A stretch of 34,690 nt of DNA from the UHGV virus genome UHGV-0268713; one strand, written 5' to 3'. Positions 2,162 through 34,375 of the stretch are shown in pieces. Position numbers and translations under genes: made by a program. Each line of letters opens with the position of its first letter. Positions within the stretch are counted from its first letter, which is position 1. The notes under the pieces were generated by a model, which did no database searches, was not told where the DNA came from, and saw nothing but the letters and a program-made list of their open reading frames with translations. This DNA comes from a virus.

Positions 2162-2184
2162 ATCACCAGTTAGTAGCTGGTGAT
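2162..2184. promoter_or_regulatory. Perfect 8-bp inverted repeat upstream of antirepressor 1
   Basis: ATCACCAG-TTAGTAG-CTGGTGAT, 30-52 nt upstream of the ATG at 2132; candidate operator for antirepressor control. Confidence 0.35.
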
Positions 2185-2456
2185 CGGGTGTCAACTAGAG
2201 CCTTCAAAGACGCTCCGGGCATATTCCCCTTTTGGGTATTGTATTACGCCTCTCCACCCGACCTTTGTACGGATGTGACTATGCCAAATTGCAGGCATAA
2301 AAAAGCCGCAAAGCTATCGGGTGCGGGTGACCGCTTTGAAGTTCTAGTACGGTCAGTATGCGATAGCTCTGGCGGCATTGTCAAATCATGCGCCACTGAG
2401 TCCAGCAATCTCTGCAATACCAATAGCGAGATAATCGCGATTCGTCAGGCGTGATT

Positions 2457-7094: not shown

Positions 7095-7325
7095 ATGAGC
7101 GATAACGGACATTTCGATTTCAAAAAGCACTGGCTTGCACTTACTCCGGATGAGCGTGAAGCCTTCGCACAGGAAGCCGGAACGACGAGTCACTATATCC
7201 AGACTCACTTAACAGGTAAGCGCAAAATGCCAGGTAAGGTATTGATGAATGGGCTTTTTAAAGCCTGTAAAACAAGACAATGGCTGCGCTCAAAAGCAGA
7301 ACTGGCATACTTCTTCTACTCATGA
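7095..7325 (+). CDS. Cro-like small HTH regulator
   Basis: 76 aa, divergent from the repressor; LTPDEREAFAQEAGTTSHYIQTHLTGKRKMP is HTH-like. Confidence 0.6.
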   Translation: MSDNGHFDFKKHWLALTPDEREAFAQEAGTTSHYIQTHLTGKRKMPGKVLMNGLFKACKTRQWLRSKAELAYFFYS

Positions 7326-7347
7326 TATCCAGCCACAACCCTCTGTA

Positions 7348-7370
7348 GACCGCCATCCGGCGGTCTTTTC
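7348..7370 (+). terminator. Rho-independent terminator after the Cro-like gene
   Basis: GACCGCC-ATCC-GGCGGTC followed by TTTTC. Confidence 0.6.
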
Positions 7371-7380
7371 ATATCTATTC

Positions 7381-7395
7381 GTACCTCAAAGGTAA
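7381..7395. promoter_or_regulatory. Imperfect operator-like site
   Basis: GTACCTCAAAGGTAA (14 of 15 to motif) just downstream of the terminator and upstream of the replication genes, in an AT-rich stretch. Confidence 0.3.
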
Positions 7396-7473
7396 TAAAA
7401 AACCAAATCTGGTTGATCAAATTTTCCAATTGTGCAAAATAGCCAATATCAATAACAAAAAGGGGCGGAAAAA

Positions 7474-11361: not shown

Positions 11362-12047
11362 CAACTTTAACCGACAAAGAAATGATTAAAGAAATCAAAG
11401 AACGCATAGGCAGCCTGGACGTGCGAGACAATATTGAGCGCCGGGCTTATGAAATTGCTCTGGCATCACTGGCAGTAGTATCGGATGAACGAGCAGCCTA
11501 TGAATTATTTATGGAGAAGCGTTTCGGGGAATCTGTAGATCGCCGTAGGGCAAAAAATGGCGATAGAGAATACATGGCATGGGATATGGCGCTTGGCTGG
11601 ATTATCTGGTGTCACCGCGCCGCCATGCTTCATGGTAGCCAACCTGTAAGCCAAACTTACAACTTGCCAGAATTAATCGAAGGCATGGAAGTTTCCATTG
11701 ATATAAGCACTTGTGATGCTGATTTAGGTAATCGCTATTTCGGCACCGTCACCGAAGCGTTAGAACTTGATACAGCCAAGAATGGTTACATCCTCCTGGT
11801 TCAGGACGCAGAGCCAAACTTCGATGTAAATGGCAACTATCCGGTAACTCCGGATAGTTGGATAAGCTGTAGTGAGCGGACGCCGAACGACGCGCAGTGG
11901 TGCGTAGTGAACACAAAATACGGGTATTACGTGCAATGCTGGTCTGAAGGTCAAGGGTGGCTTGGTGATGATATCAGCATCCCTGAATGCGATGTAATCA
12001 ATTGGATGCCGCTACCGGAACCGCCGCAGGAGGTTAACCGTGGCTAA
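11358..12047 (+). CDS. Hypothetical protein with DUF551-like C-terminal region
   Basis: 229 aa; C-terminal WISCSERTPND...VINWMPLPEPP resembles DUF551 as recalled. Confidence 0.55.
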   Translation: MTTLTDKEMIKEIKERIGSLDVRDNIERRAYEIALASLAVVSDERAAYELFMEKRFGESVDRRRAKNGDREYMAWDMALGWIIWCHRAAMLHGSQPVSQTYNLPELIEGMEVSIDISTCDADLGNRYFGTVTEALELDTAKNGYILLVQDAEPNFDVNGNYPVTPDSWISCSERTPNDAQWCVVNTKYGYYVQCWSEGQGWLGDDISIPECDVINWMPLPEPPQEVNRG

Positions 12048-12957: not shown

Positions 12958-13553
12958 TGATGCCTGCTGAACCTAAAACCTATAAACGCAAATCAACGCA
13001 ATTTAAGCCACTAACAGCAATGCAGGAGGCTTATTGCCAGTCATACATCAAAACGCCTGAAAATCAGACTCAGGCTGCGATTAACGCAGGATTCTCCCCA
13101 AATACAGCGGCAGTTAAAGCCAGTGTCATGATGCGCGATGAACGCATTCAGAAACGGATTGCCGAGCTGATGGAAGAGCGCAACAAACGAATGCGCGTCA
13201 GTGCTGATTACGTTCTCATGCGCCTGGTGGAGATCGACCAGATGGACGTGATCGACATCCTCAACGACGATGGGAGCCTTAAGCCAATCCGCGAGTGGCC
13301 GAAAATCTGGCGCACTACGCTTAGTGGCTTTGATCTGTCATCGACCATCATGAACATGAACGAGGATTCGATAGAGACAATCCTCAAAAAAATTAAATGG
13401 CCTGACAAGGTGAAGAACCTTGAGCTGATTGGTAAGCATGTTGATGTCAACGCGTTCAAAGAACGTCTGGATGTTAATGTGAATGTGACAATTGCTGATC
13501 GCATAGCAGCAGCCAGGAAGCGACTCAAAGAACGTCAGGATGGTAATCAGTGA
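12957..13553 (+). CDS. Terminase small subunit
   Basis: ATG at 12957 (the ORF track's upstream extension encodes a low-complexity TITTTVTITT stretch); HTH-like TAMQEAYCQSYIKTPENQTQAAINAGFSP; directly upstream of the large subunit. Confidence 0.7.
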   Translation: MMPAEPKTYKRKSTQFKPLTAMQEAYCQSYIKTPENQTQAAINAGFSPNTAAVKASVMMRDERIQKRIAELMEERNKRMRVSADYVLMRLVEIDQMDVIDILNDDGSLKPIREWPKIWRTTLSGFDLSSTIMNMNEDSIETILKKIKWPDKVKNLELIGKHVDVNAFKERLDVNVNVTIADRIAAARKRLKERQDGNQ

Positions 13554-15025
13554 CAGATACAGCGTTATCTCCTGAAGAGCAGTTAATCGAGGATATTGCA
13601 GGGTTCACTCACGATCCGCTTGGCTATGCCCTCTATGCGTTCCCATGGGGGGAAGAGGGGACTGAACTGGCACATGCCACCGGCCCACGTCAGTGGCAGG
13701 CTGATGCGTTCCGAGAGATACGTGATCACCTGCAGAATCCAGAGACGCGCTATCAGCCGCTTATGCTGGCACGCGCTTCTGGTCACGGTATTGGTAAATC
13801 CGCATTCATCTCAATGCTGATCAACTGGGGCATGTCCACTTGCGAGGATTGTAAGGTCGTGGTGACCGCCAACACCGACAACCAGCTACGAACGAAGACC
13901 TGGCCGGAAATTATCAAGTGGTCGAACCTTGCTATCACGAAAGACTGGTTTACCTGTACCGCTACCGCGATGTACAGCAATGATCCTGGGCACGACAAGC
14001 GGTGGCGGGCTGACGCAATCCCCTGGTCTGAGCACAACACTGAGGCATTCGCAGGACTACACAACGAGCGCAAACGCATCATCGTGGTATTCGATGAAGC
14101 GTCGAACATTGCGGATCTGGTGTGGGAAGTTGCTGAGGGTGCGCTTACGGACGAAGACACTGAGATTATCTGGGTGGCGTTCGGAAACCCTACACGTAAC
14201 ACCGGGCGTTTCCGCGAATGTTTCCGCAAATATAAACACCGCTGGAAAACTGCGCAGATTGACAGCCGGACGGTGGAAGGCACTAACAAACAGCAGTTGC
14301 AGAAATGGGTTGATGACTACGGGGAAGACAGCGACTTCGTTAAAATCCGTGTGCGCGGCATATTCCCTGATGCATCTGAATTGCAGTTTATCCCTACCGG
14401 TCTTACTGATGAGGCAATGAAACGGGTGGTAACCGCTGCGCAGGTGGCGCATGCTCCGGTGATAATCGGTGTTGACCCGGCATATTCAGGCGTTGATGAC
14501 GCGGTGATATACCTGCGGCAGGGGCTACACAGTAAGGTGCTGTGGACTGGCAACAAGACCACCGACGATCTGATTATGGCGAAGCGTATCGCTGACTTTG
14601 AAGACCAGTACCATGCTGACGCGGTGTTCATCGACTTCGGTTACGGAACCGGTCTGAAGTCAATCGGTGATGGCTGGGGTCGTACATGGCAACTTGTTCC
14701 GTTCGGTGGTGCGTCAACTGACCCTCAGATGCTCAACAAGCGCGGGGAGATGTTCAACTCATGTAAGACATGGCTGAGGCTGGGCGGCATGCTGGATGAC
14801 CAGGAAACAGCGGACGACCTGTCGGCGGCAGAGTACAAAGTTCGAGTGGACGGTAAAATCGTTATCGAACCGAAGGAAGATATCAAGGAGCGGCTTGGGC
14901 GTTCTCCTGGTAAAGGCGATGCGCTACTGCTGACGTTTGCGTTCCCTGTGTCGAAGCGTCTGCGAATTCCCGGGCAGCAGAACCAGCAAGGCAAGGCCAT
15001 CACAGATTACGATCCCTATGCTTAA
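13550..15025 (+). CDS. Terminase large subunit
   Basis: 491 aa; Walker A-like GHGIGKS, Walker B-like IIVVFDEAS, C-terminal acidic nuclease-like region (IGVDPAYSGVDDA). Confidence 0.85.
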   Translation: MTDTALSPEEQLIEDIAGFTHDPLGYALYAFPWGEEGTELAHATGPRQWQADAFREIRDHLQNPETRYQPLMLARASGHGIGKSAFISMLINWGMSTCEDCKVVVTANTDNQLRTKTWPEIIKWSNLAITKDWFTCTATAMYSNDPGHDKRWRADAIPWSEHNTEAFAGLHNERKRIIVVFDEASNIADLVWEVAEGALTDEDTEIIWVAFGNPTRNTGRFRECFRKYKHRWKTAQIDSRTVEGTNKQQLQKWVDDYGEDSDFVKIRVRGIFPDASELQFIPTGLTDEAMKRVVTAAQVAHAPVIIGVDPAYSGVDDAVIYLRQGLHSKVLWTGNKTTDDLIMAKRIADFEDQYHADAVFIDFGYGTGLKSIGDGWGRTWQLVPFGGASTDPQMLNKRGEMFNSCKTWLRLGGMLDDQETADDLSAAEYKVRVDGKIVIEPKEDIKERLGRSPGKGDALLLTFAFPVSKRLRIPGQQNQQGKAITDYDPYA

Positions 15026-15075
15026 TCCGCTGGTGGGGATAATGTCGTTGATATCCTCTGGTGAGGATAAAACAA

Positions 15076-15095
15076 AGCCAGCTCATAGGCTGGCT
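15076..15095 (-). terminator. Terminator hairpin between convergent genes
   Basis: AGCCAGC-TCATAG-GCTGGCT; T-rich on the minus strand (TTGTTTTAT), weaker on the plus strand. Confidence 0.45.
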
Positions 15096-15648: not shown

Positions 15649-15725
15649 TGGCGTGGCATGCAGGATTCGAACCTGCGACCAACCGCTTAGAAGGCGGTTG
15701 CTCTGTCCAACTGAGCTAATGCCAC
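15649..15725 (-). tRNA. tRNA-Arg (anticodon UCU)
   Basis: Minus-strand sequence GTGGCATTAGCTCAGTTGGACAGAGCAACCGCCTTCTAAGCGGTTGGTCGCAGGTTCGAATCCTGCATGCCACGCCA folds by eye into a cloverleaf: 7-bp acceptor stem, D-arm GCTC/GAGC, anticodon stem ACCGC/GCGGT with loop CUUCUAA, T-arm GCAGG-TTCGAAT-CCTGC, encoded CCA. Confidence 0.85.
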
Positions 15726-16373: not shown

Positions 16374-18053
16374 ATGGCGGAAACAACTAAAGAGCGATTG
16401 AACAAACAGTTCGCACAACTTGAAAGCGAGCGTCAGTCGTTCGAGCCGCACTGGCGCGAGTTGAGTGATTACATCAACCCGCGTGGTTCCCGCTTTCTGA
16501 CTTCTGAGGTCAACCGTAACGATCGACGCAATACACGCATTATTGATTCGACCGGGACTATGGCGGCGCGCACTCTCGCCAGCGGCATGATGTCAGGCAT
16601 CACAAGCCCCGCGCGTCCGTGGTTTCGCCTGGCTACGCCAGATCCTGAAATGATGGATTATGGCCCTGTTAAGTTGTGGCTTGAGGCGGTGCAGAACCGC
16701 ATGAACGATATGTTCAATAAGTCGAATCTCTATCAGTCGCTGCCGCAGTTATACGGAAGCCTCGGCACATACAGCACTGGCGCAATGGCGGTGCTGGAGG
16801 ATGACGAGGACATCATTCGTACAATGCCATTCCCGATAGGAAGTTACTACCTGGCTAACTCACCTCGTGGCAATGTGGACACCTGTTTTCGCAAGTTCTC
16901 TATGACTGTTCGTCAGCTTGTTCAGGAGTTCGGACTAAATAACGTCAGCGAATCCGTAAAAAGCATGTGGGAAAGCGGCACCTACGAGAAGTGGATTGAA
17001 GTGATGCATTCGGTTTACCCGAACATTGACCGCGATACATCGAAGCTGGATAGCAAGAACAAGCCATTCAAATCGGTTTATTACGAGGTTGGTGGCGATA
17101 ACGACAAGTTGTTGCGTGAGTCCGGATTTGATGAGTTTCCAATTATGGCTCCGCGCTGGGAAGTTAATGGCGAAGATGTTTATGGATCATCATGCCCGGG
17201 TATGCTGGCGCTTGGACCTGTTAAGGCATTGCAACTTCTCCAGAAGCGCAAGTCGCAGTTGATTGATAAAGCCACCAATCCGCCGATGGTTGCTCCGACT
17301 TCCCTCAAGAATCAGCGCGCCTCCCTTCTTCCTGGCGACATCACGTATATCGATCAGATTACTGGTCAGGATGGCTTCAGGCCTGCTTATCTGGTTAACC
17401 CCAGTACAGCAGATCTGGTAGCAGACATTCAGGACACTCGTCAAATCATTAACAGCGCCTACTTTGTCGATCTGTTCATGATGTTGCAGAACATCAATAC
17501 CCGCTCGATGCCTGTTGAAGCAGTGATCGAAATGAAAGAAGAAAAACTTCTGATGTTGGGGCCGGTTCTGGAGCGTCTGAACGACGAATGTCTTAATCCT
17601 CTCATTGACCGCGCTTTCTCGATGATGGTGCGTAAAAACATGCTGCCGCCACCGCCTGACGCGATGGAAGGTATGCCCCTGAAGGTCGAATACATTTCCG
17701 TCATGGCTCAGGCGCAGAAGTCTATCGGCCTGTCCAGTCTGGCGTCTACGGTCAACTTCATTGGTCAACTTGCGCAAGCGAAACCAGAAGCTCTCGACAA
17801 ACTCAACGTTGATCAGGCGATCGATGCATTCGCTGATATGTCCGGAGTGTCTCCAACCGTCATTGTTCCGCAGGAACAGGTTGAGCAGGCTCGCCAGCAA
17901 CGGGCACAGCAACAACAGCAGCAACAAATGATGGCGATGGGGATGGCGGCGGCACAGGGTGCCAAGACGCTAAGCGAAGCTAAAACTTCGGATCCGAGTG
18001 TTTTGTCAGCTATGGCGAATGCAGTTAGTGGTCAGGGTGGGCAATCACAATGA
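16374..18053 (+). CDS. Portal (head-to-tail connector) protein, podovirus/T7-like
   Basis: 559 aa; lies after the terminase genes; Gln-rich C-terminal tail; N-terminus consistent with T7-type connector proteins as recalled. Confidence 0.8.
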   Translation: MAETTKERLNKQFAQLESERQSFEPHWRELSDYINPRGSRFLTSEVNRNDRRNTRIIDSTGTMAARTLASGMMSGITSPARPWFRLATPDPEMMDYGPVKLWLEAVQNRMNDMFNKSNLYQSLPQLYGSLGTYSTGAMAVLEDDEDIIRTMPFPIGSYYLANSPRGNVDTCFRKFSMTVRQLVQEFGLNNVSESVKSMWESGTYEKWIEVMHSVYPNIDRDTSKLDSKNKPFKSVYYEVGGDNDKLLRESGFDEFPIMAPRWEVNGEDVYGSSCPGMLALGPVKALQLLQKRKSQLIDKATNPPMVAPTSLKNQRASLLPGDITYIDQITGQDGFRPAYLVNPSTADLVADIQDTRQIINSAYFVDLFMMLQNINTRSMPVEAVIEMKEEKLLMLGPVLERLNDECLNPLIDRAFSMMVRKNMLPPPPDAMEGMPLKVEYISVMAQAQKSIGLSSLASTVNFIGQLAQAKPEALDKLNVDQAIDAFADMSGVSPTVIVPQEQVEQARQQRAQQQQQQQMMAMGMAAAQGAKTLSEAKTSDPSVLSAMANAVSGQGGQSQ

Positions 18054-25369: not shown

Positions 25370-28086
25370 TGCCTGTTGTTCCTACTACATCCGGACGCCA
25401 GGTGCAAAGTCGTGGTGTGCAAACCGGTGGTTTTCAGACCTTCGATGTTCCTCAAGCAGGTCAGGTGCTGGCGAATGTCGCAGATCAGTATGCGGTGGCA
25501 TATGGTGAAGCCAGGCAGAAAGCGAATGTTGCATTGTCTCAGGATGCCATCCTTCAGCTTAATCAGCGCAGCAATGAACGTCTTTATAACCCTCAAACCG
25601 GTTTTTATGCACAACAAGGCAAAAATGCGATTGGTAAGGGGCAAGAGTACATATCTGGATTTGATCAGGATGTGGAAGAAATAGCTGCTTCATTGACTGA
25701 TGAAGCAGCAAGAAATATGTTTTTGCAACAAGCCAGAACACAGAAAATTCAGTTCAGTACTGGAGTTCTCAGACATGAGATAGGGCAGACAAATGCCTAT
25801 GAAGATGAGCAATATCAGGCAACGAGAAAATTATGGATACAAAATGAAGCGGATGCCTGGAATGACCCGCAAACTGCCACTTTAGCCAGAAATTCCAGAA
25901 TGGTAGCCATTGCCAGATATGGAGCTGCCAGGGGATGGTCACAAGAACGCATTCTGGAAGAAATAGAAAGTGATGATCGCAGTGCCACAGAAATGCGGGC
26001 GAAGAATTATGCCGCTGCCAATCCAGAAGGATGGCTAAATGGTCTGTTTCAGAAAAATGATTCTGGAGGCATGGACATGCGTGCCATACGCCTTGTTGAA
26101 TCAGGTGATCGACATTTTAATCCTGATGGTAGTCTTCTTGAGGGACCGATAACATCTTCTGGAGAGAGAGCCCAGGGGAAATACCAGTTAATGCCGGGCA
26201 CAGGAAAAGAACTGGCGGCCAAGCGTGGCGTTGAATACAACCCTACGGACGAACAACAGCATGAAATGCTCGCCAGTGACTATGTAAATCAACTGTATGG
26301 TAAGTACGGTTCCGAAATATTGACCGGAGCAGCATATAACTGGGGGATGGGTAACGTGGATAAACTGATCGCCAAAGTCGGTGATCCACGTAAAGGTGAA
26401 ATATCAGAAGAAGAATTTATCCGAAATCTTCCATCAGAAACACAAGGGTGGCTTTCCCGATATAGAAAAAATAAAACTGCAATGGATCCGCTGACTATTT
26501 ATCAAATAGATAACCTTGCTAATAGTCAGATAGAAAAGCAAAGGAAGTTAATATTAGAACAGCTTGAGCCAGCTATTAATAACACCATGGCCCAGCTATA
26601 TAACGGTGAGGTTCCAGATTATATACCGGCTCAGGAGACCATCATCAGGGGGTATGGAAAAAACGCAGATAAAATAATCAATCAACTGGATATAGCGATT
26701 GATAACGCGAGAATATTCCAGGCAATTCAGTATTTGCCTCCTTCTCAGCAGCAAGAAGAAATGCAGAAAGTGAAGCCTGAGGTTAACGATCCTCACTATG
26801 CGTTAAAACTCGATGCTTACGGAAAATTGTCTGCATTGCTTCAGAGATCAAATGAAGCAATTCAGGCGCAACGGGATTCACGCAGATTCAATGAGGCGCT
26901 GACAATAGGTGAAAAATTAGACCCAAGCAACAAGTCAATGCAGAAAGCTGCTGATTACACAGAAATGGCGCAGAACTTTCGTATTAATGATGCCTCCACT
27001 CATGATGGGGTTGTTCGGCTTGTGGCTCAGACTGGCATAATGCCTTCGCAGGTCATCACGCAGCTTTCAGCAGTATCCCGATCCAGCAATCAGGAAGTGG
27101 TTAAAAATGCGTCGGAACTGTTTAGTCGGTTATATGAAACAGACAATGCATCTATTGGAAATATGCCGAAGGATATGCAGGGTTTTTATCTGACTGTTAA
27201 GCAACTAACTGATTCTGGCATGTCTGCTGATGCGGCTATCGAGCAGGCGCAGAACCTTACGTACAACCAGACCGATGCTCTTAAAGCTCAATTGGCATCA
27301 ACGCAGAGTTCAAAAGAGTACAAAAATGATCGCAGCAAGGCGATGAATTCTGCTGTCAGCAATATGGCGCAGTGGTTCCGTTGGGATCCGTCTGCGGATG
27401 ACCAGACGCCGGAAGCAGCTAGATTCCGTAATGACTATCAGACGCTGTATGACATTAACTACCGCGTTGCTGGTGGTAACGCTGACGTAGCGAAGCAAAT
27501 GACCAACCAGCAGATAGCCCGCACCTGGAGTATCAGCGAGGTTAACGGAGAAGCGCAGTTTATGAAATATGCACCGGAGGCGCTTTATCAATATGGGCCG
27601 TCAGGCTGGCAGGCGGCGCAGTGGAAAGCTGAAAAAGAACGGCTGATGTACGGTGAGCGCAAAGAGATTATAACAACCAGCCCGACGTTGCTTGGGATCA
27701 CGTCAGGTAATGCTCCTGTAGTTGAGACAAAAACCCCTGAGAGTCGTATTAATGGAGAATTATTCATAACCCCTGACGTGTTAACACCCCGTAATGGTGA
27801 TTACGCCATTATGGTAAGAACTAAGGATGAAAATGGCATCGATCGGGTCCAGCCGTTTTATAACAAACATGGGCGTCCTATGCGTTGGGAACCATCACTA
27901 GAAGATTGGGAACCCTATAAGAAAATGCAGCAGGAACGGGAGCAGTACGAGCAGGAAGAAATTATGCGTGGACAGGCTATACGAAACTTCAAAGACAAGC
28001 ATCGCGCTCTGGATGAGCAGTATCAGCGCCTGCATAACGAACGTATGGATAAATTTAAAGATTACTTTTCGTGGGGATCTAAATAA
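25369..28086 (+). CDS. Internal core/ejection protein with lytic transglycosylase (SLT) domain
   Basis: 905 aa; GKYQLMPGTG ... AAYNWGMGNV matches the SLT-domain signature (GLMQ/AYNxGxGxV-type). Confidence 0.7.
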   Translation: MPVVPTTSGRQVQSRGVQTGGFQTFDVPQAGQVLANVADQYAVAYGEARQKANVALSQDAILQLNQRSNERLYNPQTGFYAQQGKNAIGKGQEYISGFDQDVEEIAASLTDEAARNMFLQQARTQKIQFSTGVLRHEIGQTNAYEDEQYQATRKLWIQNEADAWNDPQTATLARNSRMVAIARYGAARGWSQERILEEIESDDRSATEMRAKNYAAANPEGWLNGLFQKNDSGGMDMRAIRLVESGDRHFNPDGSLLEGPITSSGERAQGKYQLMPGTGKELAAKRGVEYNPTDEQQHEMLASDYVNQLYGKYGSEILTGAAYNWGMGNVDKLIAKVGDPRKGEISEEEFIRNLPSETQGWLSRYRKNKTAMDPLTIYQIDNLANSQIEKQRKLILEQLEPAINNTMAQLYNGEVPDYIPAQETIIRGYGKNADKIINQLDIAIDNARIFQAIQYLPPSQQQEEMQKVKPEVNDPHYALKLDAYGKLSALLQRSNEAIQAQRDSRRFNEALTIGEKLDPSNKSMQKAADYTEMAQNFRINDASTHDGVVRLVAQTGIMPSQVITQLSAVSRSSNQEVVKNASELFSRLYETDNASIGNMPKDMQGFYLTVKQLTDSGMSADAAIEQAQNLTYNQTDALKAQLASTQSSKEYKNDRSKAMNSAVSNMAQWFRWDPSADDQTPEAARFRNDYQTLYDINYRVAGGNADVAKQMTNQQIARTWSISEVNGEAQFMKYAPEALYQYGPSGWQAAQWKAEKERLMYGERKEIITTSPTLLGITSGNAPVVETKTPESRINGELFITPDVLTPRNGDYAIMVRTKDENGIDRVQPFYNKHGRPMRWEPSLEDWEPYKKMQQEREQYEQEEIMRGQAIRNFKDKHRALDEQYQRLHNERMDKFKDYFSWGSK

Positions 28087-31000
28087 TGCCAGTTTATGCA
28101 CAAGCTGAAGATCTTAATAACGGACTGATCCCGTCAGGTAATGTTTTGCCGGAACAAACTGGGTTTGATGTTGCCCTTCCGGAAGGGGCTAATCCTGAGC
28201 CATTGCCACCTGAGCCTTCCGTATGGGGGGCTGCAATGCGACAGAACAATATTCTGTCTGGTTTTTTCCGCCCAGCCAGACAGTTTGAACCGGTCGAGGG
28301 TTATAACCCATATGCTGATAAAAATGAGTTGCACGGTTATGAATACTGGGGGGCGAAATTTGCAGATTCCCGATCGCCAGAGGAAACGGCGTGGATTAAG
28401 CAGCAGATAGATGATGAAAATGAAGACAGACGTTTATTGTCTGATGCTGGCGTAGTTGGAACCCTTGCCAGTATTGCTGCGGGAATGGATCCGGTTACTG
28501 TTGCGTCAATGTTTATTCCCGGTGCTCAAGGAGGGGCACTGGCGCGTATTGGCTCACAGATTGCGATTGGTGCTGCCGGTACAGCATTAAGCGAGGTTGT
28601 ACTGAATAATCAGCAAATAACACGCTCATGGGGTGAAAGTGCCGCTCACGTTGCAGCGGGTGCGATGATGAGCGGCGTGTTTGCCAGTGCTGGTGTTGCG
28701 CTTTCGCCATCCGTCCGGGCTGCAGCCACACGTGAGGTTGCTGATGCTCTTGATAATATGAGCATTACATCAGCGACTGACAGGGCTGCCGCTTCGCTTT
28801 CCGATGGTGGTAGTGTTGGTGCTATGAAAATTGATACAGCGACTCTGGATGATTTAACCCCTGTTTCCGGTGGGTGGGTTGGAAAGGCTGCATGGAAAGC
28901 AGGGAGCTATCTTACTCCTTTGACAAGGTTAATGGAGTCTCCGTCCAAGACGGTGCGAAAAACAACGCTGGAGTTAGCCGAAAATAATTTCACCCTTAAA
29001 GGAAATGAAAGGGGGATTGAAACACCGGTAGCTGTAGAAACCCGTACACGTGGATGGCAGCGTGAAGAAGCTGCTGTTGTTGTCGGAAATAAACAGGCAT
29101 ACGCAAAGTATAAAGCTGATGGTGGTGACATGAGTTTTGATTCATTTCGTCAGCAGGTTGGGAATGCTATGCGAAGCGGTGATGTGCATGCTAATCCTGT
29201 TGTTCAGGAAACGGCGCAGGCGATGCGAACTGTATTAAATCGGGTGAAAGTTGAAATGCAAAAGCTTGGTTTATTGCCGCCAGATGAAGAACTGAAAGCA
29301 TTAGGCCAGGCAAGCTATTTCCCACGCATATATAAAGTTGGAAAAATAATCAGTGAACGCGATAAATTTCGACGTATTTTGGTTGGCTGGTGGTCGAGAG
29401 GAAATAAAACACTGGATCCTGAGGATGCTGAAATTGCAGCGGATATCGTAATTAATAAAATTACTGGTGCTAAGGTTCCACAGGATTTTGTCAGCGTATT
29501 TTCTGTAAAAGCCGCAGGTAGTACGAAAGAAAGAACATTAAATGTTCCTGATAGTCTTATCAGGGATTATCTTGAAAGTGATGTGAATTACGTGCTGCAA
29601 CGTCATATCCGTGAAGCGGCAGCAGAAATTGAGTTGACGAGAACATTTGGCAAACGAACTATGACTGAGCGTCTGCAATTAATTGAGGACGAATATGACA
29701 GTCTGTTACGGGAAGTGCCTGAAAAAATAAAGGCGAAATATGACGAAAGTGTGGCAAATCTGAAAGCACGTTATGAGAGCAATGGTGAAGTTGTTCCTCA
29801 GGGTAAACTCGATTCATTAATGCGAAAGTACGAAAAGGAATTACGGAAAGAACAGTCCAGACTTTCAAAATCAAGAGCAAATGATCTCAGAGACATAACA
29901 GCATTACGCGATCGTCTTGTTGGTACATATGGTATGCCTGATGATCCGTCTTCGTTTTTTGTTCGTGCTGGCGCTTTTCTGCGGGATGTGAACTTCACGA
30001 CCAAACTCGGTGGAATGACAGTATCAGCTATTCCAGATCTGGCCAGAGGGGTTATGGTTAATGGTTTCCGTAACACCATGAAAGGCTATGCTTCTCAGAT
30101 ATCCCAATCACCGGCATTTAAGGCCAGCAAAGAAGAGATGTTGAAGATGGGGATTGGATTGGAAGCTGTACTACATTCACGTTCTCGTGCAATTGGTGAT
30201 CTTGTTGACAGTTCTTCCAGGACAACAGCAGTCGAAGCAGGAATGGAGCGAATTACTGATGCCTTCGGCAAGCTGACACTCATGGATCGATTTAATGACA
30301 TAAACAAATCCATGAACGGAATGCTCACGTCAGACGGTATTTTGTCTGGTGCGTTTTCTGCACGTCGCATGGCAAAACTCGGTATCAACGACAATATGGC
30401 TGCGCGTATTCGCAGTGAGTTCGAGAAACATGGTGAGGTAATTGATGGATGGCACATTGGTAACTTTGATAAATGGGACGATCAGTACGTTGCCGGAGTA
30501 TTCCAGTCAGCGGTTCTGAAAGACGTTAATAACACTATCATCACCCCCGGTATTGGTGACACACCTTTATGGGCGAGTACTCCAATGGGGCGAACGATAT
30601 TTCAGTTTAAATCATTCACAACGGCTTCATACAACCGTGCGCTACTTGGTGGGTTACAGGAAGGAACTGCGCAATTTTATTATGGCACTGCATTTCAGAT
30701 TGCTCTTGGCTCACTGGTCTATGCGCTAAAAGAAGCATCGAAAGGGAAAAATGTTGACTGGTCACCAGAGAAGCTGGTGCTTGAGGGTATAGATAGATCC
30801 GGTATTCTTGGGCCATTGATGGAATATAACAACATGGCTGAAAAGGCTACTGGTGGTGCTGTTGGGCTGGGGGCTTTATTTGGCACTGGCACACAGTCTA
30901 GGTATGCCAGTCGTGGATTCGTAGGATCTCTATTCGGACCGTCATTTGGTCTTGCGGATAGCATCATTGATGTGACCGCAGGAGTGTTGAATGGTGATGC

Positions 31001-31100
31001 CGGTGATCGTATTGTGCATAATGTCCGAACCCTGATACCAGGCAATAACCTGTTCTGGATTGCGCCACTAATAAACCAGTTGGATCCGGTGATGCGGTGA
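28086..31100 (+). CDS. Large internal core/ejection protein
   Basis: 1004 aa, directly after the SLT-domain protein; composition is unlike a beta-helical tailspike. Confidence 0.6.
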   Translation: MPVYAQAEDLNNGLIPSGNVLPEQTGFDVALPEGANPEPLPPEPSVWGAAMRQNNILSGFFRPARQFEPVEGYNPYADKNELHGYEYWGAKFADSRSPEETAWIKQQIDDENEDRRLLSDAGVVGTLASIAAGMDPVTVASMFIPGAQGGALARIGSQIAIGAAGTALSEVVLNNQQITRSWGESAAHVAAGAMMSGVFASAGVALSPSVRAAATREVADALDNMSITSATDRAAASLSDGGSVGAMKIDTATLDDLTPVSGGWVGKAAWKAGSYLTPLTRLMESPSKTVRKTTLELAENNFTLKGNERGIETPVAVETRTRGWQREEAAVVVGNKQAYAKYKADGGDMSFDSFRQQVGNAMRSGDVHANPVVQETAQAMRTVLNRVKVEMQKLGLLPPDEELKALGQASYFPRIYKVGKIISERDKFRRILVGWWSRGNKTLDPEDAEIAADIVINKITGAKVPQDFVSVFSVKAAGSTKERTLNVPDSLIRDYLESDVNYVLQRHIREAAAEIELTRTFGKRTMTERLQLIEDEYDSLLREVPEKIKAKYDESVANLKARYESNGEVVPQGKLDSLMRKYEKELRKEQSRLSKSRANDLRDITALRDRLVGTYGMPDDPSSFFVRAGAFLRDVNFTTKLGGMTVSAIPDLARGVMVNGFRNTMKGYASQISQSPAFKASKEEMLKMGIGLEAVLHSRSRAIGDLVDSSSRTTAVEAGMERITDAFGKLTLMDRFNDINKSMNGMLTSDGILSGAFSARRMAKLGINDNMAARIRSEFEKHGEVIDGWHIGNFDKWDDQYVAGVFQSAVLKDVNNTIITPGIGDTPLWASTPMGRTIFQFKSFTTASYNRALLGGLQEGTAQFYYGTAFQIALGSLVYALKEASKGKNVDWSPEKLVLEGIDRSGILGPLMEYNNMAEKATGGAVGLGALFGTGTQSRYASRGFVGSLFGPSFGLADSIIDVTAGVLNGDAGDRIVHNVRTLIPGNNLFWIAPLINQLDPVMR

Positions 31101-31765: not shown

Positions 31766-32197
31766 CTATTCAGGTATTTCAATTCCAAAACCATCTGCAT
31801 CCCATGAGTTTTCACAGATGATGTAACCTAGTTCATTGAGCTTATTAAATGTTTTTTCAAAGATGATCTGGTAATCATTATCTGCAAGTGATTCCAGTTC
31901 AAGGTCATTAAGGTTTATATAAAAACTTGTATGTCCAAGTGTTATTTTTTTATTGATTTCATTAAAAGTTCTTTTGAAAATAATATTTGATATTTCATGC
32001 CGTGCATTGTTTGCAATAATTTTTGCTTCATAAGCAGAAATTACGTCATCTTCATGAATATCTTTCAGAAAGCTGGTGTCAAGACGTTGTACTATTTCAG
32101 CGTTCATTGATCGCTTATTGGCTTTTGCAGAAATTTCTATTTTTTCTTTTACTTCAACGGGAAGTCTGATCCTTAGTTGTGGATCTTCTCTGCTCAT
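31766..32197 (-). CDS. Mnt-like ribbon-helix-helix repressor fused to a C-terminal domain of unknown function
   Basis: ATG at 32197 with a GGTGAAG Shine-Dalgarno. N-terminus MSREDPQLRIRLPVEVKEKIEISAKANKRSMNAEIVQRL closely parallels P22 Mnt (MARDDPHFNFRMPMEVREKLKFRAEANGRSMNSELLQIV, recalled from memory). The remaining ~100 aa are AT-rich-encoded with no recognised domain. Confidence 0.7.
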   Translation of the reverse strand: MSREDPQLRIRLPVEVKEKIEISAKANKRSMNAEIVQRLDTSFLKDIHEDDVISAYEAKIIANNARHEISNIIFKRTFNEINKKITLGHTSFYINLNDLELESLADNDYQIIFEKTFNKLNELGYIICENSWDADGFGIEIPE

Positions 32198-32243
32198 GTT
32201 CTTCACCAAATATTGAGTTACTTGCAATGATTGAAGTATGCCT

Positions 32244-32303
32244 CACCGTGTGCTTGACATCAATGACGCACGGTGTGACAATTGTTTTGCCCCACGGTGG
32301 GGC
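32244..32303. promoter_or_regulatory. immI-like divergent promoter/operator region
   Basis: TTGACA (32255-32260), 17-nt spacer, GACAAT (32278-32283) reading rightward; flanking inverted repeat CACCGTG (32244-32250) / CACGGTG (32269-32275); palindrome GCCCCACGGTGGGGC (32289-32303), whose core CCACGGTGG resembles the P22 Mnt operator as recalled. Confidence 0.45.
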
Positions 32304-32317
32304 TAAGGAGATATGAA

Positions 32318-32485
32318 ATGCAAAAAGCAAAAGAGATGTGTCAACGACGAGTTCGTTTTCCGGACGATGTGAAGTTAGCTATTGAAAGAAATGGCGAAAA
32401 AGAATGCCGAAAGTTCAATACAGAGATTATCTATCAGCTGAGGAAAGTGTATGGACTCACTGGTGAGAAGAATAGCGTGGCATAA
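32318..32485 (+). CDS. Arc-like ribbon-helix-helix repressor
   Basis: ATG at 32318 with an AAGGAG Shine-Dalgarno; 55 aa; RVRFPDDVKLAIERNGEKECRKFNTEIIYQL fits the Arc/Mnt RHH pattern; immediately upstream of the antirepressor. Confidence 0.6.
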   Translation: MQKAKEMCQRRVRFPDDVKLAIERNGEKECRKFNTEIIYQLRKVYGLTGEKNSVA

Positions 32486-32557
32486 AACAGCGAAGCCCAA
32501 CGGTGGCCAGACCGTCAGGGCTTCAGTATCGTAAAACTACGTATAGGAATTAACGAC
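32483..32557 (-). ncRNA. Candidate sar-like antisense RNA covering the antirepressor ribosome-binding site
   Basis: Minus-strand sigma70-like promoter TTGATA (32592-32587), 17 nt, TATACT (32569-32564); hairpin GAAGCCC-N19-GGGCTTC (32492-32524) followed on the minus strand by GCTGTTTTA. Predicted transcript of about 70 nt. Confidence 0.3.
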
Positions 32558-33502
32558 ATGACGAGTATAGCAACAGCGGTATCTACTATCAACGTGCCAT
32601 TCCACGGCGCAGAACTTTATGTTGTCAATCACAACGGAGAACCGTACACCCCAATGAAACCTATCGTTGAAGGCATGGGTATGGATTGGGCTTCACAGTT
32701 TACGAAAATGAAGCAGCGGTTTAAAACCTGCATTGTGAAAATCACAATGCAGCTTCCTGGGGATGAACAGCGCCGTGAGATTATTTGTTTGGCACTTCGC
32801 AAACTTGCTGGCTGGTTGCAAACCATCAGCCCTAACAAAGTCCGCCCTGAAATCCGCGACAAGGTAATCCAGTATCAGGAAGAGTGTGACGATGTGCTCT
32901 ACGAGTACTGGACTAAAGGCCATGTGGTTAACCCACGCAAAGCTAAAAAGGCGTTGCCGGGTAAAATAACCACTGAACAGCAGGAAGCCATTAAACAACT
33001 CGTCATGAGTCGCGGTCAGTCTCTACCAAAAGAAAAACAGGCTAAGGCGATGATCACCATGTGGTCGTCACTGAAATCTCATTTTGGCTGTTCGTACAAA
33101 GAAATTGGTGAAGATCAATTTGCCGAAGCGTTGTCTCTTGTTGCTCGGGTTCCGCTTGAAGGGGAGTATCTCCCTGCTGGATCTGCATCAGAGAATGATG
33201 AAGTGGCAGTCAAGATGTTAGATGCGCTTCGTGAGGCAATTAAAACACAGACAAAATGTTATGGTTATCCACTGAAGCCCGGCTACCGCAGCCTGATTCA
33301 TTCGCCGTCTGGTGTTCTCGGCCTGACGGAGAACTCACTGCTGATGAATTTGCTGAACCAGTTACAGGAAGACGGGCATGACGTATCGGGCGCGGCGGCG
33401 GAACTGACCACCATGTTCTGCTACATCGTCGGTGTGAGTAAATGCCTGCGTGATATCCAGACCCACGCGGAGTACATCAACGACAAGGCAGGGTTCTTCT
33501 GA
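32558..33502 (+). CDS. Antirepressor paralog 2 (AntA-like N-terminal domain plus KilAC-type C-terminal domain)
   Basis: 314 aa; its C-terminal ~75 aa are identical in protein to antirepressor 1; sits downstream of the arc-like gene as in P22 immI. Confidence 0.85.
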   Translation: MTSIATAVSTINVPFHGAELYVVNHNGEPYTPMKPIVEGMGMDWASQFTKMKQRFKTCIVKITMQLPGDEQRREIICLALRKLAGWLQTISPNKVRPEIRDKVIQYQEECDDVLYEYWTKGHVVNPRKAKKALPGKITTEQQEAIKQLVMSRGQSLPKEKQAKAMITMWSSLKSHFGCSYKEIGEDQFAEALSLVARVPLEGEYLPAGSASENDEVAVKMLDALREAIKTQTKCYGYPLKPGYRSLIHSPSGVLGLTENSLLMNLLNQLQEDGHDVSGAAAELTTMFCYIVGVSKCLRDIQTHAEYINDKAGFF

Positions 33503-33552: not shown

Positions 33553-33578
33553 AGGCCGCTTTCGCGGCCTTGTTTTTA
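33553..33578 (+). terminator. Rho-independent terminator after antirepressor 2
   Basis: AGGCCGC-TTTC-GCGGCCT followed by TGTTTTT. Confidence 0.6.
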
Positions 33579-33737
33579 ACGAATGCCACCGCCGCCAGGG
33601 CGGGAATCCGCAGAACGCCCACCGCAGCGGGAGCCGTCAGCGGCAGTATCGCTGTCGTGCTGACAACGACCGGCAAAGGCCTGAGTTGAAGCTACCAGAG
33701 ACAACAAAACGAACAGTGCAGCAAATGCTTTTTTCAT
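33576..33737 (-). CDS. Candidate small secreted peptide (53 aa with signal peptide)
   Basis: MKKAFAALFVLLSLVASTQAFA looks like a Sec signal peptide with an AxA cleavage site; the predicted mature 31-aa peptide is Gly/Arg-rich with two Cys. Upstream promoter-like TTGACG, 16-17 nt, TATAGA; no clear Shine-Dalgarno. Confidence 0.3.
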   Translation of the reverse strand: MKKAFAALFVLLSLVASTQAFAGRCQHDSDTAADGSRCGGRSADSRPGGGGIR

Positions 33738-33807
33738 TGTGAAATTTCCATCTATAAGCCACCTCAATGTGGCGTCAATGAGTGTAGCACTGACTTTTGT
33801 TTCGTCC

Positions 33808-33830
33808 ACAAAAAAGCCCGCGCTGCGGGC
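33808..33830 (-). terminator. Rho-independent terminator for the accessory operon
   Basis: GCCCGC-GCT-GCGGGC hairpin (33816-33830) followed on the minus strand by TTTTTTGT. Confidence 0.55.
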
Positions 33831-34375
33831 TATTCCTTCCATTTATCAGAAAAAAGATCTTCTTCTAAAGGCATTGGTTCTGTTTTTGTTTTCTCAAAGA
33901 ATTGATAACTGATAGTGATTGCTGCCTCTTTAAACTCTTCTTGCTCAGTTATGTTGTGAGCATCTGCGTCAACAAAAAACATAACCAGCGCATCACGATT
34001 GTGATTTACCGAATAAACTAAAAAGCAATCACTTGTTGGTATGCATTTTACTTGTACAGACGCTATATTTTTCCATGCATCCCAAGATGATTTTTTACCA
34101 GTGTGTTTTTTATCACTATCTTCTGGAATATAGTCTTGGTTATCGACATGAGTATGCCTGACATTTAGTTTAAGCATTTCTGTCGGACGAGCAAATGCAG
34201 CATCTTTACCAAGAGATGGATGGTATCCCGTTTTCCAATACTGGGTAAAGGCATCAGATACTTTCTTCAGCTCAAGATCAGATGCACAAAGGGCCGAGAA
34301 ATTTTGCGTATGCAATACTCGACCCTTATATCTGACAATTTGATTTTTATCATTCTGCGACGCAGACGAACTCAT
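33830..34375 (-). CDS. Hypothetical protein (181 aa), AT-rich accessory gene
   Basis: ATG at 34375 with an AAGGA Shine-Dalgarno; low GC; no confidently recognised domain. Weak resemblance of HTH and LVY...H segments to YafO-type toxins is unverified recall. Confidence 0.55.
   Translation of the reverse strand: MSSSASQNDKNQIVRYKGRVLHTQNFSALCASDLELKKVSDAFTQYWKTGYHPSLGKDAAFARPTEMLKLNVRHTHVDNQDYIPEDSDKKHTGKKSSWDAWKNIASVQVKCIPTSDCFLVYSVNHNRDALVMFFVDADAHNITEQEEFKEAAITISYQFFEKTKTEPMPLEEDLFSDKWKE

Follow-up and report, generated by a model that had tools for sequence, protein, structure and literature searches.

A P22 sar-type antisense RNA predicted opposite the antirepressor ribosome-binding site of an E. 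coli epsilon15/phiV10-like prophage

The window analyzed here, by which we mean the whole 34,690-nt (34.7-kb) stretch of the virus genome UHGV-0268713, contains an immI-type region whose features are collected in Table 1. The immI gene set is present in the form of Mnt-type and Arc-type ribbon-helix-helix repressors together with an Ant antirepressor, and each of the three ORFs (mnt-like, arc-like, and ant) is intact. The product of the mnt-like gene is labeled an Arc family DNA-binding protein in RefSeq, and the counterpart of arc in the record of phage TL-2011b is labeled an Arc-like repressor. The arc-ant spacer measures 72 nt, and the predicted fold of the ant mRNA leaves both the Shine-Dalgarno sequence (SD) and the AUG unpaired. 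The Pant-like promoter is flanked by candidate operators, a 12-nt repeat (TGACGCACGGTG and variants) present in three copies. A second promoter, Psar, lies on the opposite strand ∼340 bp from Pant, in a convergent geometry as in P22.

Table 1. Features of the immI-type region, with positions in the window
Feature	Position	Strand	Description and basis
mnt-like repressor gene	31766-32197	-	143 aa; N-terminal Arc ribbon-helix-helix domain (PF03869, E 1e-14)
Pant-like promoter	32254-32282	+	TTGACA/17/GACAAT with TG; promoter consensus scan; convergent with Psar
arc-like gene	32318-32485	+	55 aa; 33% identity to P22 Arc, E 4e-5
arc stop codon	32483-32485	+	TAA; sequence
Predicted sar RNA	32484-32557	-	∼71-74 nt; Rfam RF00262 and P22 analogy
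Terminator tail of predicted sar	32484-32491	-	GCUGUUUU; overlaps arc stop codon TAA 32483-32485
Stem-loop 2 (predicted)	32492-32524	-	GC-rich terminator hairpin; 13 pairs, one bulged U
Stem-loop 1 (predicted)	32528-32557	-	Stem GUCGU/ACGAU; UUCCU in loop (32549-32545); folding
ant translation start (predicted antisense target)	32545-32560	+	Shine-Dalgarno AGGAA 32545-32549, 8-nt spacer, ATG 32558-32560
ant antirepressor gene	32558-33502	+	314 aa; P22_AR_N (PF10547), E 1e-44; 40% identity to P22 Ant
Psar extended -10	32564-32572	-	TGCTATACT; -10 at 32569-32564, TG at 32572-32571; complement of ant codons 3-5 (AGT ATA GCA, Ser-Ile-Ala)
Psar -35 hexamer	32587-32592	-	TTGATA; complement of ant codons 10-12 (ACT ATC AAC)

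The 551-nt arc-sar-ant segment was 100% identical to prophage DNA of E. coli strains such as OkiPb01683, and related copies of the segment were found in 181 of 5426 complete E. coli genomes. Further, the part of the window from position 12000 to its end (22.7 kb) shared 98% identity with phage TL-2011b, which covers 96% of that part. The structural genes of the window are of the phiV10 type, which we take to be epsilon15-like rather than P22-like. Because the backbone is of the phiV10 type, yet phiV10 itself gave no match to the arc-sar-ant segment by blastn, the cassette in the window behaves as a mobile "ant moron," an element known from P22-like phages (PMC2629481). The TL-2011b record does not annotate the RNA, and for the identical E. 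coli genome RefSeq lists no ncRNA.

The sequence-only reading of this DNA had pointed to a near-consensus sigma70 promoter on the minus strand (TTGATA, 17 nt, TATACT; 32592-32564), and our consensus scan found the same promoter, with 10 of 12 consensus matches and a TG preceding the -10. The extended -10 promoter is thus placed within the first ant codons. Four sites in the whole window reach at least 10/12, and only two of them, Psar and the Pant-like promoter at 32254 (+), also carry the TG of an extended -10. Because dinucleotide-shuffled sequence yields 0.38 ± 0.58 promoters of at least 10/12 with TG per window, the match of Psar by itself is only mildly improbable and not decisive; its combination with position, structure, and homology is what decides.

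Analogy to the annotated P22 start, together with the spacing from the -10, places the +1 of the predicted RNA at G 32557, and the 3' end was put within the U tract at 32487-32484. An RNA of about 70 nt had been proposed from the letters alone, and these ends give 71-74 nt, against ∼68-69 nt expected and slightly longer than in P22. The predicted RNA is antisense to the arc-ant spacer, lies over the ant RBS, and ends at the arc stop. The sequence-only reading also had the promoter pointing leftward across both the RBS and the start codon of ant. The first part stands, as the predicted RNA covers AGGAA 32545-32549, but the start codon is overlapped by the promoter and not by the RNA: the ATG (32558-32560) sits between the -10 and the predicted +1, and the RNA probably begins 1 nt upstream of it, so that it covers AGGAA and the arc-ant spacer in full, just as P22 sar does.

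The 74-nt form (32557 to 32484) folded into two hairpins at -23.7 kcal/mol (z -2.56), with the loop sequence UUCCU of stem-loop 1 directly opposite the ant SD AGGAA. On the minus strand, the terminator scan returned a stem at 32513-32494 whose tail is TCGCTGTTTT, and folding lengthened this stem to 32524-32492; the 13-pair hairpin and its U tract at 32487-32484 bear out the hairpin with a U-tract that had been placed at 32524-32483. The fold only moderately beats shuffled sequence, since 4 of 200 shuffles folded equally well, and no more than 5 pairs of stem 1 are solid; the terminator carries a bulged U and is followed by a short, interrupted U tract (GCUGUUUU). A search of the window for a second sar target with up to 3 mismatches over 21 nt returned nothing besides the cognate site. 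A small minus-strand ORF was ruled out as an account of the interval: neither AUG nor GUG occurs in the predicted RNA, and the only ORFs overlapping the area are mechanical ones of 31 and 41 aa.

One alternative is that the prophage is defective and its cassette a relic without activity, being sar by descent with its regulatory role lost. In favor of such a relic, the terminator is slightly weakened by its bulge, the z-score of the fold is lower than those of its relatives, and the ant moron region changes rapidly, ant or arc being degraded in some phages (PMC2629481). However, the three ORFs of the region are intact, Psar is nearer to consensus than its counterpart in P22 (-35 TTGATA versus GTGTTA), near-identical sequence is present in the inducible phage TL-2011b, and related copies persist in the 181 E. 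coli genomes noted above. We therefore regard loss of function as extremely unlikely.

When the window was scanned with Rfam at curated thresholds, three matches were obtained, one of which was sar RNA (RF00262). This match (minus strand, 32556-32489; all 68 positions of the model, 1-68; E 3.1e-6) reached 45.2 bits, a small margin of 2.2 bits above the gathering score of 43. The near-identical copy in TL-2011b scored 44.8 bits against RF00262, and a custom covariance model built in this analysis (R1) scored the window element at 75.9 bits. In the P22 record (NC_002371), arc ends at 15022, the sar misc_RNA runs from 15090 to 15021 with its terminator at 15021-15058, the sar promoter runs from 15125 to 15097, and ant starts at 15091. 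In both the window and P22, Psar occupies +6 to +34 from the ant ATG, and the 3' end of sar overlaps the arc stop codon. When the window was aligned directly with P22, TL-2011b, and CUS-3, three blocks proved invariant: TTGCTATACT, which comprises the -10 and its TG; TCATGT, which adjoins it and spans the start codon of ant; and GAAGCCCTGAC ... GGGCTTC, at the base of the terminator stem. P22 sar folds likewise, at -29.5 kcal/mol (z -5.3). P22 was not retrieved by blastn at word size 11, whether the query was the 551-nt or the 117-nt region, and homology between the window and P22 is visible only via covariance models and direct alignment. The full-length RF00262 match, the identical promoter offset, and the immI flanking genes substantiate the analogy with P22 sar in size and position that had been drawn earlier. 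Judged by these comparisons, the element is a true homologue of P22 sar and not just "sar-like." Because a curated Rfam model recognizes it and the family and its function are textbook knowledge, we rate it as an element of an already known kind: an unannotated, somewhat divergent copy of sar.

We next consider the start of ant, which RefSeq places in the identical E. coli genome at GTG 32594, versus ATG 32558 in Table 1. If GTG 32594 were correct, the RNA would miss the true RBS. Because AGGAA is followed after 8 nt by ATG 32558, because the resulting M-x-S-I-A N terminus is common with P22 Ant, and because the annotation of TL-2011b agrees, we favor the upstream codon; ant probably starts at ATG 32558, and the RefSeq start is probably 12 codons too far downstream. 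The significance of the element as a whole is mainly for annotation, and no new biology is implied. With ATG 32558 as the start, the prophage antirepressor would, by analogy, be under both transcriptional control (by the Mnt-like and Arc-like repressors) and antisense control.

To place the element in a wider set, we used 80 viral contigs recovered by homology to the Ant protein, with no reference to the RNA (identity of the best Ant segment, 60-99%). A sar element was present on the minus strand directly upstream of ant in all 80 contigs, as well as in P22 and CUS-3. Folded one by one, the 20 distinct sar variants all adopted the two-hairpin form, with loop 1 holding the anti-SD, and shuffle tests on eleven of them (the window and P22 included) gave z-scores of -2.6 to -6.3. 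In a structural alignment of the variants, compensatory double-sided changes were seen at 9 of 22 pairs (3 of 7 in stem 1 and 6 of 15 in stem 2), and the covariation score was 0.463, compared with 0.203 ± 0.016 for shuffles and 0.008-0.094 when the pairing partners were slid by 1-3 columns. This alignment was hand-built and N-padded from the minimum-energy fold of each sequence, which makes its 99% pairing partly a matter of construction, and the compensatory changes of pair type are its informative part. Two other alignments were set aside: a plain MAFFT alignment of the 20 variants had stem 1 out of register and was excluded from pair counting, and a covariance-model alignment was discarded on account of plus-strand matches to the near-palindromic terminator hairpin and a P22 sequence misplaced by one base.

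The codons in which Psar is embedded provide a second line of comparative evidence. Among 33 distinct ant 5' ends, codons 3-5 were AGT, ATA, and GCA wherever the residue was kept (33/33, 31/33, and 33/33, respectively), so that synonymous variation in the codons of the -10 and TG was zero despite their 6-, 3-, and 4-fold degeneracy. The Ile codon within the -10 is fixed as ATA, which is the rarest Ile codon in enterobacteria, and the ATC codon in the -35 was likewise invariant (33/33). In contrast, the third position of codon 12, just outside the -35 hexamer, varied between C and T, and the synonymous sites of codons 7, 12, and 13, in the spacer or just outside the hexamers, varied freely. Because synonymous sites within the hexamers are fixed and neighboring ones are variable, the pattern of codon use indicates that Psar is conserved beyond what the Ant protein requires.

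These data also bear on the possibility that the hairpin is a mere element of the arc-ant mRNA, such as a partial terminator or attenuator, a processing site, or a stabilizer, with Psar fortuitous and no functional antisense RNA made. The hairpin is indeed nearly palindromic and forms in plus-strand RNA too; the N terminus of Ant is conserved as protein, which alone would conserve some of the DNA; and a 10/12 promoter with TG is expected by chance in roughly one window in three. However, the plus-strand sequence has no T run behind the hairpin and the terminator scan predicted none there, and a bidirectional or plus-strand terminator was ruled out on this basis; because these features are lacking, rightward arc-ant transcription should be able to pass the hairpin. 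Further, the synonymous positions of the hexamers are frozen next to variable ones, and constraint on the Ant protein cannot explain the -10, because antirepressors whose N-terminal domains are unrelated are preceded by the same -10. Read on the minus strand, stem-loop 1 with its anti-SD loop covaries, and P22 sar is an experimentally detected RNA, seen in P22 RNA-seq (PMC13397905) and in work cited in PMC2629481. An element acting in the mRNA alone is thus exceedingly improbable.

In the mechanism that we propose, Psar, embedded in ant codons 3-12 on the opposite strand, would give rise to a 71-74-nt transcript from ∼32557. Its complementarity to the arc-ant intercistronic region is perfect by construction, and an intrinsic terminator of its own, lying over the arc stop, would end it. 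The anti-SD UUCCU in loop 1 would pair with the ant mRNA and occlude the RBS, and translation of Ant would be blocked on arc-ant transcripts from Pant as well as on read-through transcripts from upstream. In P22, Psar becomes active when Pant is shut off, and because the convergent geometry of Pant and Psar is preserved, the same activation is plausible in the window too. By this analogy, Psar would fire mainly once convergent transcription from the strong Pant has been shut off by the Arc-like or Mnt-like repressors, and sar would back up transcriptional repression, with antirepressor kept low in the establishment and maintenance of lysogeny. What the analysis shows directly is the anatomy of the sequence, its homology and synteny, the covariation of the structure, and the conservation of the promoter; at the window locus we infer the transcription of sar, its exact ends, the repression of ant, and the interplay with Pant. 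In P22, sar blocks ant post-transcriptionally (Liao 1987 and Wu 1987, as cited in PMC2629481, PMC12197685, and PMC11016777; see also PMC13397905), and by analogy a post-transcriptional block on ant is the most likely mechanism in the window.

The convergent promoter could instead act mainly by transcriptional interference, through collision or occlusion between Psar and Pant, with RNA pairing secondary or irrelevant. The two promoters do face each other at a distance of ∼340 bp and are the only two strong extended -10 promoters in the window, and interference between Psar and Pant is reportedly part of the P22 model of Liao et al. from 1987. Interference alone, however, would call for neither a conserved two-hairpin RNA nor compensatory changes nor retention of the anti-SD in a loop, and the zone of collision is limited by a terminator that lies only ∼70 nt from the start. 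In P22, Pant inhibits Psar, Psar is not known to inhibit Pant, and sar acts in trans. The literature likewise classes sar as trans-acting (PMC12197685), which argues against interference as the main mode of action. We therefore consider this explanation very unlikely. Overall, we hold it to be highly probable that the interval encodes an orthologue of P22 sar, an antisense RNA that is transcribed from Psar and blocks translation of ant.

The sar cassette was also observed before antirepressors of several domain types: Bro-N in phages Kapi1, PhiR5_1, KP12, and ST11-VIM1phi8.1; KilA-N in phage Emek; and P22_AR_N in the window, P22, ST899-OXA48phi17.1, and Oslo. In all of these sar-preceded antirepressors the protein begins with M-x-S-(I/V/L)-A or M-S-I-(A/V), which encodes the -10. 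Several true relatives of sar, including some before Bro-N antirepressors, fell below the Rfam threshold, with scores of 34-38 bits. The Rfam sar model is near its threshold even for real members such as the window element (45 bits) and, because true relatives score as low as 34-38 bits, the sar family is broader than the current model.

The sar cassette thus resembles a portable module that is joined to the antirepressor gene in mosaic fashion, a few codons after its start. A more far-reaching reading, which we put forward tentatively and consider possible but rather doubtful, is that the sar unit, made up of an extended -10 promoter in antirepressor codons 3-5, the anti-SD hairpin, and the terminator, is a portable regulatory cassette and no peculiarity of P22. 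In this reading it has been recombined into a non-P22-like backbone of the epsilon15/phiV10 type and imposes a shared M-x-S-(I/V/L)-A N terminus on antirepressors with three unrelated N-terminal domains, and the divergent variants of stem 1 and upper stem 2 represent specificity classes for silencing in trans. If this were true, the sar variant class would decide which antirepressors of co-resident or superinfecting phages a prophage silences in trans.

Among known systems, P22 sar belongs to the same family as the predicted RNA of the window. Like that RNA, it lies opposite the arc-ant spacer and the SD of ant, convergent with Pant; its hairpin 1 presents the anti-SD, and its hairpin 2 is a terminator over the arc stop. 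The two differ in detail: the spacer is 72 nt in the window versus 68 nt in P22, with a window RNA ∼4 nt longer; stem 1 is GUCGU/ACGAU in the window versus GUUGGU/ACUGAC in P22; the upper terminator stem and loop differ, with a bulged U in the window; and the -35 is better in the window (TTGATA) than in P22 (GTGTTA). The partner proteins are distant from those of P22 (Ant 40% and Arc 33% identity), and the Mnt-like protein of the window, at 143 aa, has an extra C-terminal part. The host element also differs, being an E. coli epsilon15/phiV10-like prophage in the window versus a Salmonella P22-like phage.

The E. coli P22-like phages CUS-3 and Kapi1 and the Salmonella phage Emek (84.6, 72.4, and 61.7 bits against RF00262, respectively) share with the window the promoter and the type of stem-loop 1, and CUS-3 is ∼90% identical to the window over the segment comprising sar and the 5' end of ant. 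In upper stem 2 they follow P22 and differ from the window. Unlike the window, CUS-3 lacks arc (PMC2629481), and the antirepressors of Kapi1 (Bro-N) and Emek (KilA-N) contrast with the P22_AR_N antirepressor of the window. The C4 antisense RNA of P1/P7 (RF01695), together with isrK/anti-Q, is likewise a small phage RNA by which an antirepressor is kept switched off post-transcriptionally, but C4 is unrelated to sar in sequence and structure and is processed from a same-strand transcript; it acts at sites upstream in the same operon and is no convergent cis-antisense RNA. In the close relative TL-2011b, a C4/isrK module is found a few kilobases downstream, at a position that falls outside the window. 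Finally, the OOP RNA of lambdoid phages resembles sar in being a 77-nt cis-antisense RNA with its own promoter and terminator that acts in the lysis-lysogeny decision (PMC12197685); unlike sar, it has no homology to the present element and targets the 3' end of the cII mRNA via RNase III cleavage, rather than acting by occlusion of an RBS.

Sar-like units, each made up of an extended -10 and two hairpins, immediately precede the antirepressor in seven further records (L084–L090). The antirepressors behind these units carry a Bro-N, KilA-N or P22_AR_N domain at the N terminus, and common to all of them is an M-x-S-(I/V/L)-A-type start, which encodes the -10. Three of the units that precede Bro-N antirepressors scored 34–38 bits, below the Rfam threshold of 43 bits, and in several of the seven records the antirepressor CDS is annotated through the sar region, with a start ~80 nt too early. 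Further, our home-made sar covariance model gave a weak match (16.3 bits, E = 0.79) in the oop terminator region of phage P22 (32271–32338, minus strand), which probably reflects only the common shape of a hairpin followed by a U-tract.

We also compared the start of the antirepressor gene (ant) with its RefSeq (PGAP) annotation in an E. coli genome identical to the window at this locus (L091 3445), where no ncRNA is annotated and the start is placed at GTG 32594, 12 codons downstream of ATG 32558. The ATG has an AGGAA Shine-Dalgarno sequence 8 nt upstream and encodes a P22-like M-T-S-I-A N terminus; the RefSeq start was probably mis-called. Upstream, a 12-nt motif (TGACGCACGGTG and variants) occurs three times at a spacing of 24–25 nt, bracketing the Pant-like promoter's -35 and -10 elements, and we consider these copies candidate operators for the Arc-like and Mnt-like repressors.

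Features of the window and of related genomes
Feature	Genome	Position	Strand	Remark
12-nt motif copies	window	32239–32250, 32264–32275, 32288–32299		
10+10 palindrome	window	32286–32306		contains one 12-nt motif copy; just downstream of Pant-like promoter
Sar-like units	L085, L086, L087, L088, L089	about 1170–1320 in each		
C4 antisense RNA, isrK and c4-a1b1 matches	TL-2011b (L002)	7273–7471	-	Rfam
sRNA-Xcc1 (RF02221)	window	2174–2263	-	full-length Rfam match; 62.9 bits (gathering score 53)
tRNA gene	window	15652–15725	-	73.3 bits
YafO-family toxin homologue	window	33833–34402	-	PF13957; 25.8 bits (cut-off 25)
88-aa ORF	window	33576–33842		between ant and toxin homologue
Terminator-like hairpin	window	33553–33570	+	between ant and toxin homologue
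Terminator-like hairpin	window	33831–33815	-	between ant and toxin homologue

In phage TL-2011b, C4 antisense RNA (77.7 bits), isrK (76.7 bits) and c4-a1b1 targets (41.7 bits, just below the gathering score of 46.7) were matched just beyond the 5' end of a gene that encodes a Bro-N domain, in a region that would fall ~700 nt past the right end of the window. It thus seems that phages of this type possess a second antirepressor-like module a few kb away from sar, one that would be controlled by an antisense RNA unrelated to sar.

Elsewhere in the window, the sRNA-Xcc1 match lies in the prophage's left-hand portion, and the tRNA gene is flanked by ORFs of 491 aa (13550–15025) and 559 aa (16374–18053), with tRNA-Arg annotated at the equivalent place in related phages. 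The YafO-family toxin homologue sits just downstream of ant.

The Mnt-like repressor (31766–32197, minus strand) has 143 aa compared with 83 aa for P22 Mnt; its Arc-fold domain covers residues 2–46 only, and the C-terminal ~95 residues had no Pfam match. Because phiV10 gave no match to the arc-sar-ant segment, we regard the immI cassette as a mosaic insert behind the 1004-aa gene (28086–31100), in a backbone (12000–34690) that is of the TL-2011b/phiV10 type, which is epsilon15-like, not P22-like.
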